From: a virus
IMG/VR virus record: IMGVR_UViG_3300008221_000005
Location: 1-42,140 of that record
Length of the DNA: 42,140 bases
Reading direction: 5' to 3' (one strand)
Positions 4,374 through 41,837 of this stretch are shown here, piece after piece. A program made the position numbers and the translations under genes. Within the stretch, counting starts at the first letter, position 1, and the number at the start of each line of letters is the position of its first letter. The notes beneath the pieces are model-generated. The model was given only the letters and a program-made list of their open reading frames with translations, searched no databases and was not told the origin of the DNA.

Positions 4374-4828
4374 TATTTAAACTCCTGTCGATATTTAGAA
4401 GGCAACGCTTCAACAATGGCGATAAAAATCCCCTGTGCTAATTCAACCTTGTTATAGCCTTGCTGTAAGGCATCGCCGATTTCACCACCAATCACATTAC
4501 ATCGAGTGGTATCCTGAACATCGGGGTTAGAACAACGGTCTTCCTGTTCCTGTTTTAGCTCGTAGTATTTCGCGTAACCCTGATTAGAGGCTTCCAGTAG
4601 ATCGAATCCTTCCAACACCTTTAAATGCAGGTCTTGTGCTCTGCCTTCAGTAATCACGCCTTGGTTCATAAGATCAAACACAATTGAATCCGCTAAATCC
4701 AACTTAGCTGCTGAGACAATTAACGCCTCACCAACATTCTCAGGTTTTGTAGCGCATCCGGTGACTGCAAAGGCAATCGCCAGGAATAAAAACCCTAACT
4801 GCTTCTTAATGCTTAACTGCTTAATCAT
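4373..4828 (-). CDS. Putative lipoprotein (151 aa)
   Basis: Leader LGFLFLAIAFAVTGC with a lipobox. Confidence 0.6.
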   Translation of the reverse strand: MIKQLSIKKQLGFLFLAIAFAVTGCATKPENVGEALIVSAAKLDLADSIVFDLMNQGVITEGRAQDLHLKVLEGFDLLEASNQGYAKYYELKQEQEDRCSNPDVQDTTRCNVIGGEIGDALQQGYNKVELAQGIFIAIVEALPSKYRQEFK

Positions 4829-5109
4829 TTACTTTTCTCCAATGTTTCAATAAGTATTCGCTTATCTGTATCCGGTAACTTGCTTGTATCGATTTTGATA
4901 ATATTAGGGTTGCCGAATGTTAGTTTTGCACTGGCAGATAACCGGCCATAAAACGCTATAACCAATCCACCTATCTGCATTAAAATAGTAAGAAAAATAT
5001 CCAGATCAGTTTCAGTAACAGCGATATCGCCATTAGCGAATGCAGCACCTAATGCACTGATTAGAATTCCCCAAATACCTTTGCTTTGTAAAAAGTTCTT
5101 AGTGTCCAT
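4825..5109 (-). CDS. Putative holin (two TM segments)
   Basis: 94 aa, two hydrophobic helices and a charged C-terminus. Sits immediately downstream of the endolysin. Confidence 0.5.
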   Translation of the reverse strand: MDTKNFLQSKGIWGILISALGAAFANGDIAVTETDLDIFLTILMQIGGLVIAFYGRLSASAKLTFGNPNIIKIDTSKLPDTDKRILIETLEKSK

Positions 5110-5111
5110 TT

Positions 5112-5606
5112 CTATCTCCTGTCCTCGTATGCTCGTCTTAACCAGCCTTTCTCAAACTTCTGGTTTTCTTTTCTTGCGTAAATAAATAACCGATACAATC
5201 CCGCTGCTTCACTTTTCATCGCAGATATCAGTTGTTTGGAATTACAGCTATTGGCTGCCATGATGGTGTGAGGGCCGATTAATCCGTCATCTTTTGTATA
5301 CTGACCACAGGCACGACACGCTCTCTGTAGTAACTTGTGGCCGTTCTTAGCGCCCATGTTGATTGAGTGGTCAAATGTCTTAATTGCTACTTCCTCACAC
5401 TGCAATCGGTCGTAGTTGTACGCCATCCACCAATCTCTTAAATAAATGGCTTTTGCGTCTTCTAGTGTTATCGAGGCGATGTCTAAGTGAGGATAAGTCC
5501 GTTTACTAATACCAAACTTAGTCTCTCCCCCTAAATCGGAAGAATCGTTTACGTAGCCGCCCTCTAGCCCAATGATTTTTTCGAAGGCTTTTTCAAACGT
5601 GCTCAT
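5112..5606 (-). CDS. Endolysin, glycoside hydrolase family 108-type with C-terminal peptidoglycan-binding region
   Basis: LEGGYVNDSSDLGGETKFGISKRTYP is the GH108 EGGY...D.GG.T..GI signature. DGLIGPHT lies in the C-terminal half. Confidence 0.8.
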   Translation of the reverse strand: MSTFEKAFEKIIGLEGGYVNDSSDLGGETKFGISKRTYPHLDIASITLEDAKAIYLRDWWMAYNYDRLQCEEVAIKTFDHSINMGAKNGHKLLQRACRACGQYTKDDGLIGPHTIMAANSCNSKQLISAMKSEAAGLYRLFIYARKENQKFEKGWLRRAYEDRR

Positions 5607-6844
5607 TAGTATTTAATGATCCTGTATGTGCCCATATTGACTGAGCGGGTTTCATTACCACCGGTCGAGCCTACAGAAGCTGCTCCTATAGGAATGGTAG
5701 TACCACCAGATGCGCTAACTACTCCAGAGGTGCTGCCAACAACTCCTGAATGTGTGTGCGCTTGAAGTTCGTCTTCCTGTCTTGTACCCGCGTTATCACC
5801 ACTCGTGCCATCACCGCGATCTGCACGACTTGATGCATCTGGGTCTAAATATTGAGTGATTGTGTGTGTGCCTGAACCTGCGCCAGTAATATTGATTTGC
5901 GTTCCAGCTAACGCATTTGCGTAAGATGTCGCTAACTGAATTTCATCTGCATCAACATAAATTGTGTAATAAGTAGTACTTGCAGAAAGTCCTGTTGGGA
6001 GCGTTGTGGTTGAACTAACCCTGACAGGAATACCATTACGATAATATCTGTGATTAGAAGCTGTCGTTAGTTCGTCTGTTCCAGCATCAGCAGTAAATTC
6101 AAGATCAGGGATGTCCACAGTGTAACGAGAAAACATGCCACGCCAATCAGGGAGATTAAATGTTGTTGATCCGTCGCCGTCACCATATTCCGAGCCAATT
6201 AGGGAAAACAATGTCGCGTATGTAGTTCTTGATACTAGCTGACCATTACACAGAAGAAATCCTGATGGTTCAGTTGAACTAGGGTAGTCAAACATCGCAC
6301 CCGCAGGAATAATGCCTGTTACGGCCCCAGTAAAAGTTTTATCGCCAGTAATCGTTTGCGCGGAAGATAAATCAACCCCACCATCTTTTAATGAAATATA
6401 ATTCCCCGACGCGGAAACAATAAATTCCAAAGCACCTTTTACCGGAATAGATACAGACCCGTTAGTTGTCCCATCTAACGCATCACCAGAATTTGCCAGA
6501 TCAACAGTAATTGCAGACGAATGAGAGTTGTATACATATACCCTGTAACCAGTTGACACAGAGGCGACAGAGATTAGAGATATCGTTACACCAGCCGTTA
6601 CATTGAGTACTTTGTTATAATCACCGGCAACTGTGGTGTAATTGGTTGACTTTGCATCTGGCCCCTGATTAAAATGACTAGTAAGAGCGGTTTGCAGGGA
6701 GTCGACCTGATCTGCAATAGGGTCAGATAGTTTTGTTTTATGCTTAGACCAGTTAACCTGGTTAGACGCAGCTACCGTTCCATCGTCAGCCGGAGGGCTG
6801 GCATTGTAACCTGATCTTGATACTGTGCTGAATTTAGTGCCCAT
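5606..6844 (-). CDS. Tail fibre protein with phage tail-collar domain
   Basis: FLLCNGQLVSRTTYATLFSLIGSEYGDGDGSTTFNLPDWRGMF matches the tail-collar consensus. Confidence 0.75.
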   Translation of the reverse strand: MGTKFSTVSRSGYNASPPADDGTVAASNQVNWSKHKTKLSDPIADQVDSLQTALTSHFNQGPDAKSTNYTTVAGDYNKVLNVTAGVTISLISVASVSTGYRVYVYNSHSSAITVDLANSGDALDGTTNGSVSIPVKGALEFIVSASGNYISLKDGGVDLSSAQTITGDKTFTGAVTGIIPAGAMFDYPSSTEPSGFLLCNGQLVSRTTYATLFSLIGSEYGDGDGSTTFNLPDWRGMFSRYTVDIPDLEFTADAGTDELTTASNHRYYRNGIPVRVSSTTTLPTGLSASTTYYTIYVDADEIQLATSYANALAGTQINITGAGSGTHTITQYLDPDASSRADRGDGTSGDNAGTRQEDELQAHTHSGVVGSTSGVVSASGGTTIPIGAASVGSTGGNETRSVNMGTYRIIKY

Positions 6845-35835: not shown

Positions 35836-36009
35836 TTAACCAAGCAATTCTTCATAGGAAAATTTATTGTTTGGTAATTCGATTATTTGCTTCACCCTTC
35901 TGGATGGAATGTGTTTCCACTTAGAAATGGCTTGTGGTGTAACCCCTAATAACTTTGCGAGTGATGAGGGGCCGCCAAAATGCTTGATTACTTTGTCAAC
36001 TGTGTTCAT
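35836..36009 (-). CDS. cro: Cro/YdaS-type HTH regulator (57 aa)
   Basis: Read from sequence: MNTVDKVIKHFGGPSSLAKLLGVTPQAISKWKHIPSRRVKQIIE. Divergent from the repressor. Confidence 0.7.
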   Translation of the reverse strand: MNTVDKVIKHFGGPSSLAKLLGVTPQAISKWKHIPSRRVKQIIELPNNKFSYEELLG

Positions 36010-36016
36010 AAACCGA

Positions 36017-36055
36017 ATTAAACCACAGGTGAAGTATTAATGCAACTACAAGTTG
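36017..36055 (-). promoter_or_regulatory. Leftward early promoter TTGCAT-17-TTTAAT with overlapping operator-like palindromes
   Basis: -10 at 36017-36022, -35 at 36040-36045. AAACC-ACA-GGTga at 36020-36032 and CAACT-ACA-AGTTG at 36043-36055. The ATG of cro lies 8 nt after the -10. Confidence 0.5.
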
Positions 36056-36750: not shown

Positions 36751-36779
36751 TACCGTTCGTCGGTTTCTGTAAAAAAACT

Positions 36780-36819
36780 AAACCTGCGGTTTGCTTTTAG
36801 TTTAAACCTGTGGTTTAAT
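36780..36819 (+). promoter_or_regulatory. Rightward early promoter TTGCTT-17-TTTAAT with two AAACC-N3-GGTTT operators
   Basis: Operators at 36780-36792 and 36804-36816 (centres 24 bp apart). -35 at 36791-36796, -10 at 36814-36819. Confidence 0.55.
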
Positions 36820-36863
36820 ACACCCATCGCTAGCAATTAACCAGTAACTGTATGACTAGCGGT

Positions 36864-36891
36864 GGGGAGTCCCCCAACCGGCTCCCCTTTT
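36864..36891 (+). terminator. Leader hairpin with short U-run (weak terminator or regulatory RNA stem)
   Basis: GGGGAG-12 nt-CTCCCC-TTTT, about 40 nt downstream of the predicted start site and preceded by a second 10-bp stem (36824-36865). Confidence 0.35.
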
Positions 36892-36909
36892 AACCAAGAG
36901 AGGTGAGCT

Positions 36910-36984
36910 ATGCCAATAGAAGATTACAACATAACAGAAGAAGACCTCGACGCTGAATACGACAGCATTCCGGAGGTGGATTAA
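36910..36984 (+). CDS. Micro-ORF (24 aa, acidic)
   Basis: GAGAGGTGAG SD. TAATG overlap with the next gene. Confidence 0.3.
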   Translation: MPIEDYNITEEDLDAEYDSIPEVD

Positions 36985-37838
36985 TGATTGCATATCATAA
37001 CGATGAATTACTAAAACAGAAAGCCGTTGCCAGTGCTGAAAAGCATGTAGAGCAAGACATGTTAATGAAAGGCTTGTACGGGAAAATGAATGGCCAGTTC
37101 AAGGGATGCTCAGTAGGATGTGATGCATTTGAAATTACTGGCGAAGTCCATAATGAAGCGTGTCATGAAATTACATCCAAATACTATGGCTTCCCTGAAT
37201 GGTTAGAGTTATTACGGGATTCGTTTTTTGAAAATCTCCCCGCCGAGTCAAGTAAGAATTGGCATGTCGATCTAAAGAAAGCCATTCCAGTTGGATTATC
37301 AGAAAAGGGTTTTAATAAAATTAAAGCTAAATTTCTTATATACATCTTGAAAGGAAATCTGGAGAGAGTTGCTAATCTGGATATTTCTGGCGAATTAAAA
37401 AAACAAGTAACAGACGCGGTTAATCAATGCTTGTCCGTACAAGAACAAGCTGTAATTTCTGAGGAAATTAACTCAGCAGCAGGGTCAGCAGCAGGGTCAG
37501 CAGCAGAGTCAGCAGCAGAGTCAGCAGCAGAGTCAGCAGCAGAGTCAGCAGCAGAGTCAGCAGCATGGTCAGCAGGGTCAGCAGCAGAGTCAGCAGCATG
37601 GTCAGCATGGTCAGCAAGGTCAGCAGCAGAGTCAGCAGCATGGTCAGCAGCATGGTCAGCAGGGTCAGCAGCAGAGTCAGCAAGGTCAGCAGCAAGGTCA
37701 GCAAGGTCAGCAGCAGAGTCAGCAGCATGGTCAGCAGCAAGGTCAGCAAGGTCAGCAGGGTCAGCAGCAGAGTCAGCAGCCTTTGAAGGCTACGCAAACC
37801 ATCTCTTAATGTTATTCCGGGAGGTGCAAGATGTTTGA
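36984..37838 (+). CDS. Protein with a Cys/His-containing N-terminal domain and 28 tandem S-A-(A)-X units
   Basis: The in-frame repeat occupies residues 164-267. First sizeable gene of the rightward early operon. Confidence 0.65.
   Translation: MIAYHNDELLKQKAVASAEKHVEQDMLMKGLYGKMNGQFKGCSVGCDAFEITGEVHNEACHEITSKYYGFPEWLELLRDSFFENLPAESSKNWHVDLKKAIPVGLSEKGFNKIKAKFLIYILKGNLERVANLDISGELKKQVTDAVNQCLSVQEQAVISEEINSAAGSAAGSAAESAAESAAESAAESAAESAAWSAGSAAESAAWSAWSARSAAESAAWSAAWSAGSAAESARSAARSARSAAESAAWSAARSARSAGSAAESAAFEGYANHLLMLFREVQDV
37473..37781 (+). repeat. Coding microsatellite: 9/12-bp units TCAGCA(GCA)NNG
   Basis: 28 consecutive units. The variable codon is only GGG, GAG, TGG or AGG. Contains 27 copies of GTCAGC. 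Confidence 0.9.
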
Positions 37839-37950
37839 TCACTTCACCAATATGGAATTCATGGTTCTAAGCTTTATCGCCATGTTTGTTTTGATCGGAT
37901 TCATTTTACTTCTTGACGAACAGATTCAGCGATTCAAGGGGGACGAGTGA
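37831..37950 (+). CDS. Micro-ORF, single-TM peptide (39 aa)
   Basis: GGGAGG SD. MFDHFTNMEFMVLSFIAMFVLIGFILLL. Overlap-coupled at both ends. Confidence 0.4.
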   Translation: MFDHFTNMEFMVLSFIAMFVLIGFILLLDEQIQRFKGDE

Positions 37951-40474: not shown

Positions 40475-40758
40475 AATATAGAAAGAAACCAGTTGTGATT
40501 GAAGCTGTTGAGTGGACAGGTCAAAATTTATTTGACGTTATAACCTTTACCGATGGGAAGCCGGACTTGTCTAGCGATATTCAGAAACACAAATGGCAAG
40601 AGTATTGTGAGCTTGTTGCTACTAGTGGATTTAAAATAAAAACATTAGAAGGTTGGATGCGCGCTAGAATTGGCGACTACATTATCAAAGGAGTTCAAGG
40701 TGAATTTTATCCATGCAAACCAGACATCTTTGAACAGACGTATGAGAGGGTGGAATGA
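40471..40758 (+). CDS. Hypothetical phage protein (95 aa)
   Basis: ATGA overlaps on both sides. Confidence 0.55.
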   Translation: MKYRKKPVVIEAVEWTGQNLFDVITFTDGKPDLSSDIQKHKWQEYCELVATSGFKIKTLEGWMRARIGDYIIKGVQGEFYPCKPDIFEQTYERVE

Positions 40759-41837
40759 AAAGAACAGGGGTAAGAGTCAGAGGTAATTCAATACAGATAT
40801 ATTTCGAGTATCTGGGGAAAGTGAGATACGAAACATTAAAGTTCAAAAAGGTAAACGTTGCTAATCAGAATGCCGCTGCGTTATTGCGAGAGAGGATTGT
40901 AACCAAGATTAAGGAGGGAACCTTTGACTATCTGAAGGAATTCCCACACTCGCAAATCGCTAAAAAGCTTTATCTCAGACGAGGTGGAAATACAGTGGGT
41001 GGGGCGTTGGATGAGTGGCTGGATAGTGCGAAGTCCGAGTTAAAACATTCAACCTGGATTGATTACAGAAACTCAGTCGATGTACTGAAAAGAGAGTTTG
41101 GGGACACCCTGCTTCCTAAATTAGCTAAGAAGGATATTGTGGGGTTTATTAAACGACAGGATATCAGTCAGAAACGTGCAACGAATCTATTAATTCCATT
41201 ACGTCATGTGTTGAGGGAAGCGGTAGAGGATGGCGTGATTGATGTGGATGTGTTGAGGGATTGGAAACCAAGAATCCAGAAGAAAGCACATAAGTCTGAG
41301 ATTAACCCGTTTACCAAAGAAGAACAGTTGTTACTTAAGGGTGATTCCGAAATACAGGCATTCATTCAGTTCTGTATCTGGACTGGCTTGAGAACAGGCG
41401 AAGCGTTAGCGTTGGAATGGGACGATATTGACGATGACGTAATCCATATCACCAAAAGCCTGTCATATGGAGTTGTATCCCTACCCAAAACCAAGGCAGG
41501 TATTCGCGATGTGAGCTTAAGACCCAAAGCCAGAGAAGCGCTTAAGTTAATGGCACATACCCGCTTTAAGAAAGGACGCGTCTTTACCTTTAAGACAGAC
41601 AGCCAGGTCAGAAAGCAATTTGTACAGCTTTGTAAGCGCACAGGCGTTGCATACAGGAAGCCATACAACACAAGGCATACCTTTGCATCCATGATGTTAA
41701 GTGCGGGTGAGAACGCGATGTGGGTAGCGCATCAGATGGGGCATTCAGATGTAAATATGATTGCCAGAGTGTACGGCCATTACATCCCTTCGGACAGGAA
41801 TGAGGGAAGTTTGGCAGACAGTATGTTTGGAGAGTGA
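40755..41837 (+). CDS. int: Tyrosine integrase with N-terminal arm-binding domain
   Basis: LRTGEALAL, HTFASMML and GHSDVNMIARVYGHY catalytic R/H/R/Y context. N-terminal VRVRGNSIQIYFEYLG. Confidence 0.9.
   Translation: MKRTGVRVRGNSIQIYFEYLGKVRYETLKFKKVNVANQNAAALLRERIVTKIKEGTFDYLKEFPHSQIAKKLYLRRGGNTVGGALDEWLDSAKSELKHSTWIDYRNSVDVLKREFGDTLLPKLAKKDIVGFIKRQDISQKRATNLLIPLRHVLREAVEDGVIDVDVLRDWKPRIQKKAHKSEINPFTKEEQLLLKGDSEIQAFIQFCIWTGLRTGEALALEWDDIDDDVIHITKSLSYGVVSLPKTKAGIRDVSLRPKAREALKLMAHTRFKKGRVFTFKTDSQVRKQFVQLCKRTGVAYRKPYNTRHTFASMMLSAGENAMWVAHQMGHSDVNMIARVYGHYIPSDRNEGSLADSMFGE

Follow-up and report, generated by a model that had tools for sequence, protein, structure and literature searches.

The 42,140-nucleotide DNA stretch analyzed here, positions 1 to 42,140 of IMG/VR virus record IMGVR_UViG_3300008221_000005 (hereafter the window), contains an open reading frame (ORF) at 36984–37838 on the plus strand, which starts with ATG and encodes a 284-residue protein with a long tandem repeat of the form S-A-(A)-X. 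It is very probably a real gene of a very large uncharacterized phage protein family, in which the array is an Ala-rich helical module with a one-sided stripe of Glu, Trp and Arg, kept by selection at the protein level, remodeled by duplication and loss of units and placed between a globular domain and a terminal helix. The gene is divided as follows:

36984–37472, plus strand: N-terminal domain, residues 1–163 (from conservation and the structural model)
37473–37781, plus strand: array of 28 units TCAGCA(GCA)NNG, encoding S-A-(A)-X (from unit parsing and Tandem Repeats Finder)
37782–37838, plus strand: C-terminal amphipathic helix (FEGYANHLLMLFREVQDV) and stop codon (from conservation and the structural model)

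Repeat Array of the Window Protein

Starting at 37473, 28 consecutive units begin with TCAGCA, 19 of them 12 bp and nine of them 9 bp long, and the final one (TCAGCAGCC) runs on into the conserved C-terminal helix. The X codon is GAG ten times, TGG six times, AGG six times and GGG five times, with no others, and variation within units is confined to the first two positions of this codon. These values agree with an earlier note on the same DNA, which had described 28 tandem units, the restriction of X to Gly, Glu, Trp and Arg encoded by GGG, GAG, TGG and AGG, unit lengths in multiples of three (all 28 units lie inside the ORF) and an X spacing of about 3.7 residues; the mean spacing we measure is 3.69 residues, and the codon restriction extends to relatives of the protein.

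Tandem Repeats Finder reports 27.7 copies at a period of 12, together with a higher-order period of 87 bp (29 residues). The first two SAG units lie the same 87 bp apart, roughly the length of one predicted helix plus a turn. The array contains 19 copies of the sequence TCAGCAGCA and the rest of the window one, against an average of 0.5 in shuffles of the window. The 107 array residues include 48 Ala, 28 Ser, 11 Glu and six each of Arg, Trp and Gly, so that about 16% are charged and 71% are Ala or Ser.

The 42-kb window holds no second copy of the array, the longest match being 14 nt. A diversity-generating retroelement was considered and rejected, as the window offers no template copy and the adenines of TCA and GCA stay the same in all 28 units. 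The hexamer TCAGCA is also frequent outside the array, occurring 26 times on the plus and 18 times on the minus strand, where about 9.4 per strand are expected from base composition.

Family Size and Architecture

Scored against 1.84 billion cluster representatives, a profile of the N-terminal domain matches 3,714 clusters (50% identity) at E ≤ 1e-3 and 2,665 at E ≤ 1e-10. A word-indexed search finds at least 1,743 relatives, none of them named and none with a Pfam domain. The gene was taken in the earlier note to be real and uncharacterized, and it remains so: its ATG is preceded by a GGAGG Shine–Dalgarno sequence about 9 nt upstream, it has thousands of related clusters and it belongs to no named family. 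Searches of Pfam, NCBIfam, PHROGs and PADLOC with the window protein and up to 69 relatives gave no family above threshold, and a full-text literature search with the repeat peptide strings returned nothing relevant. Close relatives were not found in species-representative bacterial genomes; a scan with the degenerate motif PEWLARL(E/Q)D recovered five members, all in metagenome-assembled genomes.

Most members share the three-part layout of N-terminal domain, Ala-rich array and conserved terminal helix, and Ala-rich tails are present in 106 of the 138 new representatives from the profile search. Among relatives, the N-terminal domain carries the signature ...KGCAVGC...PEWLARLxDxIFEGLP..., and the terminal helix follows the consensus AAY-x-x-Y-A-x-x-L-L-x-L-L. 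The array itself ranges from about two units (viral loci L022 and L040) to more than 40. Its residues other than Ser and Ala, counted in 120 relatives, are Glu (923), Trp (732), Arg (704), Lys (163), Gly (141) and Asp (137). Variant arrays are built of W/E/K without Ser (L079 and L011) or of Y/D (L039, L059 and L063), and that of L044, on a contig of 74% G+C, reads ASDAAGAARNAA. All of the variants retain an aromatic and a charged residue on an Ala background.

Viral contigs bearing the family span 38% to 74% G+C, and members also occur on phage-like contigs that were binned together with bacteria of widely differing phyla. In culture, the family is represented by hypothetical proteins of Xanthomonas phages KPhi1 (K1pha_60), phiXaf18 (phiXaf18_37), NEB7 and XapPhi1–6. 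The KPhi1, phiXaf18 and NEB7 homologs and the BFVD entry A0A6J5QCR4 have the same three-part architecture as the window protein; unlike it, they possess more degenerate arrays with Q and D at X, and they are annotated as hypothetical only. P0127, which joins the N-terminal domain to the partial, C-terminal half of a UvrD-like helicase, and P0194, with NUMOD3 motifs ahead of the N-terminal domain, look like chimeric or run-on gene calls, and P0257 contains two tandem N-terminal domains without an array.

One-Sided Helical Stripe

Family-wide, 1,325 four-residue and 801 three-residue units give a mean of 3.62 residues per unit, and neighboring pairs of three-residue units are rarer than expected. 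The periodicity of 169 arrays peaks at 99° per residue (interquartile range 96–102°). Local straightness over eight successive X residues is 0.551, as opposed to 0.404 when the unit order is shuffled, and in 154 of the 169 arrays the real order is straighter than that array's own shuffles. Both hallmarks of a one-sided alpha-helical stripe, a periodicity of about 100° and an order that keeps the stripe straight, are thus present, and the ratio and order of three- and four-residue units put every X on one helix face. The stripe of X side chains that the earlier note had predicted for the window protein therefore holds across the family. A canonical heptad coiled coil or alacoil, in which the distinguished position would recur every 3.5 residues (102.9°), was rejected, the mean resultant being 0.245 at 103° versus 0.319–0.328 at 98–100°.

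The arrays are near neutral, with a net charge of −1.4 ± 3.8. Between neighboring X residues, an acid followed by a base is mildly favored (E then R, 1.23-fold; 350 against 304), and like–like pairs are depleted.

Codon Usage and Evolution of the Array

Within an array, Ser is written with essentially a single codon and Ala with one or two, and the choice differs between relatives, which employ the pairs TCA/GCA, TCG/GCG, TCC/GCC, TCT/GCT, AGT/GCG and AGC/GCG. Because the same peptide repeat is written in different synonymous DNA, selection acts on the protein, and a sequence-specific or iteron-like DNA element is excluded. A dual DNA/protein element, one of the candidates in the earlier note, is thereby set aside: the repeat DNA is not conserved, and six Ser/Ala codon combinations encode the same peptide.

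Glu in the arrays is encoded by GAG in about 90% of cases, whereas GAA is preferred in the N-terminal domains of the same genes. Arg is encoded by AGG or CGG, rarely by CGC, CGA or AGA and almost never by CGT, Trp by TGG and Gly by GGG. We infer that the restriction to GAG, TGG, (A/C)GG and GGG reflects mutational accessibility around the sole codon of Trp: R and G are one step away from it and GAG is one step from GGG, so an array seeded with GAA would be unlikely to gain Trp. Within any single array, Arg is almost exclusively one codon, either AGG or CGG, which indicates that R-units are copied and not re-invented. More generally, one codon per residue within an array implies that arrays are young and were made by duplicating a few founder units. 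The 87-bp higher-order block points the same way, to duplication of units or blocks.

A comparison of repeat patterns among relatives, proposed in the earlier note as a check, shows that they differ between lineages and are stable at short distance. Proteins P0034, P0040 and P0051 (322, 324 and 325 residues) have identical N-terminal domains and C-termini and differing arrays, and P0010 and P0096 (275 vs 223 residues), with N-terminal domains 96% identical, have arrays of 95 vs 43 residues. Arrays of two Xanthomonas phage subgroups are unrelated. One viral contig (L075) encodes two paralogs, at 4440–5189 and 6001–6774, whose N-terminal domains are 87% identical, whose C-termini are the same and whose arrays differ. 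At larger distances, turnover is much faster in the arrays than in the flanks. At the other end of the scale, the arrays of KPhi1 (Serbia), phiXaf18 (Mexico) and MYK3 are identical, and that of BsXeu269p/3 differs from them by one Ala and two substitutions.

The window array was also compared among independent assemblies (ERZ27274933, ERZ23491791 and ERZ3906615). Its heterogeneous three-quarters are base-identical in the window contig, ERZ23491791 and ERZ3906615, with flanks 100% identical, and a contig from SRR5468492 that starts within the last three units matches the window in those units. In further assemblies of the identical prophage, breaks or a 100-N gap occur only in the SAAE run (37497–37556; L119, L120, L116 and L117); the count of five identical SAAE units is at the limit of short-read resolution and unconfirmable from these assemblies. 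Elsewhere in the family, the gene is truncated by the contig end in 25 of 80 viral contigs (IMG/VR loci L003–L082), arrays are frameshifted in L006, L084 and P0146, and several XapPhi GenBank records (PP391659–PP391664) either stop within the array, as that of XapPhi2 does, or lack an annotation of the gene. Some of the array variation among metagenome proteins may be an assembly artifact. As the array breaks short-read assemblies, the family is systematically under-annotated.

N-Terminal Domain, Terminal Helix and Predicted Structure

Residues H21, D25, G30, C42, C46, H61, P71, E72, W73, D79 and E83 are invariant or nearly so among 25–69 relatives. The earlier note had pointed to conserved-looking Cys and His residues; C42, C46, H21 and H61 justify this, and C60, which is variable among relatives, does not. 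The conserved residues form i/i+4 helix pairs (HxxxD, CxxxC and DxxxE), and the first Cys ends a beta-hairpin. Such His, Asp, Cys and Glu pairs suggest a metal site in the N-terminal domain.

Modeled alone, the N-terminal domain (about 160 residues) is all-alpha with a predicted local distance difference test score (pLDDT) of 92.9. In the AlphaFold2 model of the full protein, it scores above 90 and the C-terminal helix 85–97. Structure prediction of the repeat, which had also been proposed as a check, renders the array as helices at residues 164–192, 198–223 and 230–254, at low confidence, and the predicted breaks fall at or beside the three SAG units. The terminal helix keeps its high score even though the array beside it drops below 50. 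We consider it an evenly balanced question whether the terminal helix folds back on the N-terminal domain, leaving the array as a protruding arm, with the invariant residues binding a metal.

Foldseek searches of the Protein Data Bank (PDB) found no neighbor for the full model (best E about 3) or for the N-terminal domain alone (best E 3.2, template modeling score ≤0.33), and the sole match in BFVD was an uncharacterized homolog. Sequence and profile searches of the PDB gave compositional matches only (EsxH and ribosomal L19e tails).

Comparison with Known Proteins

The sole recurrent family match is to Pfam PF25187, Acb3, an inhibitor of the cyclic-oligonucleotide-based antiphage signaling system (CBASS), obtained for 8 of 69 members with a best E of 1.6e-4. 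Acb3 has been reported to bind cGAS/DncV-like nucleotidyltransferases (CD-NTases) directly (bioRxiv 10.1101/2025.07.23.666291; supplement of 10.1101/2025.06.06.658234). The window protein resembles it in being a phage protein of similar size, and the similarity in the family extends over about 40 residues that take in its most strongly conserved motif, namely the HxxxD helix, the beta-hairpin and GCxxGC. Scores among relatives are 13–22 bits, under the gathering cut-off of 27, and the match always pairs family residues ~6–50 with profile positions 182–224 of 245; the window protein itself has no match to the profile at E ≤ 1. With only about 16% of the profile aligned (some 40 of its 245 positions), below threshold and in a comparison by profile alone, the similarity is at most a lead to a shared motif and does not amount to membership.

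Single alpha-helix (SAH) domains of the ER/K type and Baldwin-type Ala-based helical peptides share with the array a long predicted helix that is stabilized by side-chain pairs three to four residues apart. The near-neutral charge, the mild preference for an acid followed by a base and a length that varies as in a spacer or rod are likewise ER/K-like. E, R and K make up most of an SAH domain; the window array, by contrast, has the low charged content and the high Ala and Ser content given above, and nothing in SAH domains corresponds to its Trp on every third or fourth turn. Type I antifreeze proteins are likewise Ala-rich amphipathic helices, with a flat stripe along one side made by a residue at regular spacing. 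They are short fish proteins with an 11-residue period and a Thr stripe, whereas here every turn carries E, W or R and the helix belongs to a phage protein in which it is tethered to a globular domain. Hairpins of the WXG100/Esx type come to mind because EsxH is the best PDB sequence match (E = 0.05, residues 166–250) and both are Ala/Ser-rich helix-turn-helix segments; the match is one of composition alone, lacking an in-register WXG motif, a secretion context and a Foldseek match in the PDB.

We found no described family, structure or paper covering the domain or the repeat. ER/K helices, Ala-based peptides and type I antifreeze helices are the closest structural analogs, and each fails in a defining feature.

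Genomic Context

The prophage that makes up the window lies on a metagenome contig of 195 kb, with an integrase at 40755–41837 and host genes beyond; the host belongs to an uncultured gammaproteobacterial lineage. The following features surround the gene:

35836–36009, minus strand: P22-Cro-like gene, 57 residues
36040–36465, plus strand: HTH_3 gene, 141 residues, divergent from the Cro-like gene
36779–36816, upstream of the operon: two operator-like palindromes TAAACC-TG(C/T)-GGTTT, 24 bp apart (from consensus)
36826–36912, plus strand: structured leader RNA (minimum free energy −30.6 kcal/mol, z = −3.5 versus shuffles)
36910–36984, plus strand: predicted acidic leader ORF of 24 residues (MPIEDYNITEEDLDAEYDSIPEVD), without family match
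37831–37950, plus strand: hydrophobic ORF of 39 residues, its start overlapping the stop of the main gene (ATGTTTGA) and its end overlapping the start of the next ORF (GTGA)

The stop of the leader ORF overlaps the start of the main gene (TAATG). This overlap and that with the 39-residue ORF indicate a tightly coupled operon. A hydrophobic ORF lies downstream in only 2 of 41 relatives, and the 39-residue ORF is an operon neighbor without a conserved partnership. Two further ORFs over the array, open only for want of stops in the other frames of the repeat, were rejected as its mirror artifacts: an antisense ORF of 124 residues (37468–37842, minus strand) with LLLT repeats and a +2-frame ORF of 73 residues (37565–37786, plus strand) with VSSR/VSSM repeats.

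From the Cro-like gene, the minus strand leads into replication and structural genes. The plus strand carries the main gene, the 39-residue ORF, an ORF of 104 residues, an Erf recombinase, small ORFs and the integrase, an order that resembles the leftward early operon of lambdoid phages. A related, inverted copy of the palindromes is located at ~36017–36045, between the divergent Cro-like and HTH_3 genes, making them candidate shared operators comparable to OL and OR. The earlier note had called the gene the first sizeable one of a repressor-controlled early operon; it is indeed the first after the two operator-like palindromes, with the related copy in the cro/cI-like region, and control by the repressor is plausible only. 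A generic sigma-70 promoter scan gave nothing above background. The last hairpin of the leader RNA pairs with the Shine–Dalgarno sequence of the leader ORF, and the hairpin and the overlapping acidic leader ORF could possibly serve translational coupling or attenuation. Rfam returned two low-complexity matches only, both far below threshold (isrG, 20.9 bits with a gathering cut-off of 100; mir-2756, 19.7 with a cut-off of 61).

BLAST clustering of 1,440 ORFs from 80 loci revealed no recurrent neighbor gene, and a PHROG scan of 109 neighbors turned up nothing beyond occasional Erf, methyltransferase, HNH and integrase genes; further recombinases and primase are other sporadic neighbors. Without a conserved neighbor, the protein appears to act alone. 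Temperate and apparently virulent phages alike carry the family gene in early or DNA-metabolism modules, and in the cultured Xanthomonas phages it follows a primase/VirE gene.

The leftward early operon of the prophage also contains an RNA ligase gene (PF09414; 33355–34254, minus strand), unusual for a temperate phage, which may be linked to tRNA repair or anti-defense.

Proposed Role and Alternative Explanations

We hypothesize that the window gene encodes a stand-alone early protein made from a repressor-controlled promoter. Its globular domain would hold a metal, probably zinc, by means of the invariant residues and would supply a specific activity. The C-terminal helix would pack onto this domain, with the array protruding as a helical arm before the last helix, X being Glu, Trp or Arg on the stripe and Gly units marking turns in the window member. 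Arrays change as whole units or blocks of units, descended from a few founders, are duplicated or lost, and the neutral, Trp-studded stripe would act as a long multivalent surface through which the protein associates with itself or grips a host target. As a whole, we give this explanation middling credence. Tentatively, and by analogy, we suggest that the protein may be an early host-takeover or anti-defense effector, with the stripe serving as a multivalent surface for interaction or self-assembly. Unlikely is a more specific version in which the array would be a kind of protein module not recognized before, a length-tunable alpha-helical rod whose Trp/Arg/Glu sticker stripe drives self-assembly (filament, lattice or condensate) or grips a periodic host polymer, thereby concentrating or positioning a metal-binding effector domain early in infection. 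Phages could then retune length and valency by duplicating or losing units, which would account for one phage keeping two paralogs that differ mainly in the array.

Several observations weigh against parts of this proposal. Array pLDDT falls below 50 at residues 193–200 and 216–258, and the docking of the terminal helix and the clustering of the invariant residues are inferred. Gly and Pro are absent from 100 of the 169 arrays, which leaves the return of the chain to the N-terminal domain unexplained in those members; they may be single long helices or have turns elsewhere. Charge complementarity in antiparallel arrangement along the stripe is at the level of shuffles (312 opposite-charge pairs vs 312.8), so this E–R test for a hairpin or antiparallel dimer in register was negative. 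Some members have a non-repetitive linker or almost no array (L022 and L040), so the fold does not depend on the array, which could for the most part be a spacer that is tolerated. The host-takeover or anti-defense role rests on gene position and analogy, and neither annotation nor homology assigns a function.

The spacer alternative can be stated fully: the array would be a slippage-prone insert before the last helix that need only stay helical, soluble and in frame, with E, W and R as mutational by-products. It would account for the wide range of array lengths, from the two short-array loci to more than 40 units, for the non-repetitive linkers, for the codon homogeneity that shows recent expansion, for an N-terminal domain that folds confidently in the model without the array and for the lack of positional complementarity along the stripe. 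We nevertheless consider it unlikely. Across over 100 diverged lineages that differ in codon background, X is dominated by E, W and R, Trp among them despite being rare and costly, although NNG would equally permit Q, L, V, T, A, S, P and M. Three- and four-residue units follow a non-random order that keeps the stripe straight, the variant arrays preserve the theme of an aromatic plus an acid, with or without a base (Y/D in L039, L059 and L063; W/E/K in L079), and L075 retains two paralogs differing mainly in the array. An Acb3-like immune inhibitor, in which the N-terminal domain would block a host nucleotide-signaling enzyme (the CD-NTase of CBASS or a similar one) and the array would tune reach or avidity, is compatible with the multivalent-arm proposal. 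Acb3 is the only recurrent family match, its aligned region includes H21, D25, C42 and C46, and the early gene position fits an anti-defense role; with every score below the cut-off, no match for the window protein and so short an alignment, we regard this identity as improbable.

Two further alternatives concern the repeat as DNA. A contingency or hypervariable locus, one of the candidates in the earlier note, would vary its unit number by frequent slippage and present a rapidly changing surface in an arms race. The perfect DNA repeats, the five identical SAAE units in a row, the differing arrays of P0034, P0040 and P0051 and of P0010 and P0096 and the complete array turnover between Xanthomonas phage subgroups would all suit it. 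However, all units are in frame, so slippage cannot switch expression on or off, and the heterogeneous part of the window array is identical in three assemblies and matched by the SRR5468492 piece. The KPhi1, phiXaf18 and MYK3 arrays are the same in isolates from different continents, and differences among metagenome proteins are possibly in part assembly artifacts, 25 of 80 contigs ending inside the gene; we judge such a locus quite improbable. A DNA- or RNA-level element that is incidentally translated (origin iterons, a recombination or packaging signal or a structured RNA) could be imagined from a dense direct repeat in the early region beside recombination genes and from X codons that keep G in the third position family-wide. 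It is highly improbable, since the repeat DNA differs at every synonymous Ser and Ala position among relatives while the peptide is conserved, the array is always in frame between two conserved protein segments, the window contains no second copy and the Rfam matches are far below threshold.

Thousands of phage lineages thus share a protein family without a name, a domain model or a solved or recognizably similar structure, and its repeat is an unusually clean natural case of a sequence whose period is tuned to the alpha-helix. Should the stripe prove to be a surface for binding or assembly, the family would provide a simple natural scaffold for length-programmable helical rods and a new candidate class of early phage effectors against host defenses.

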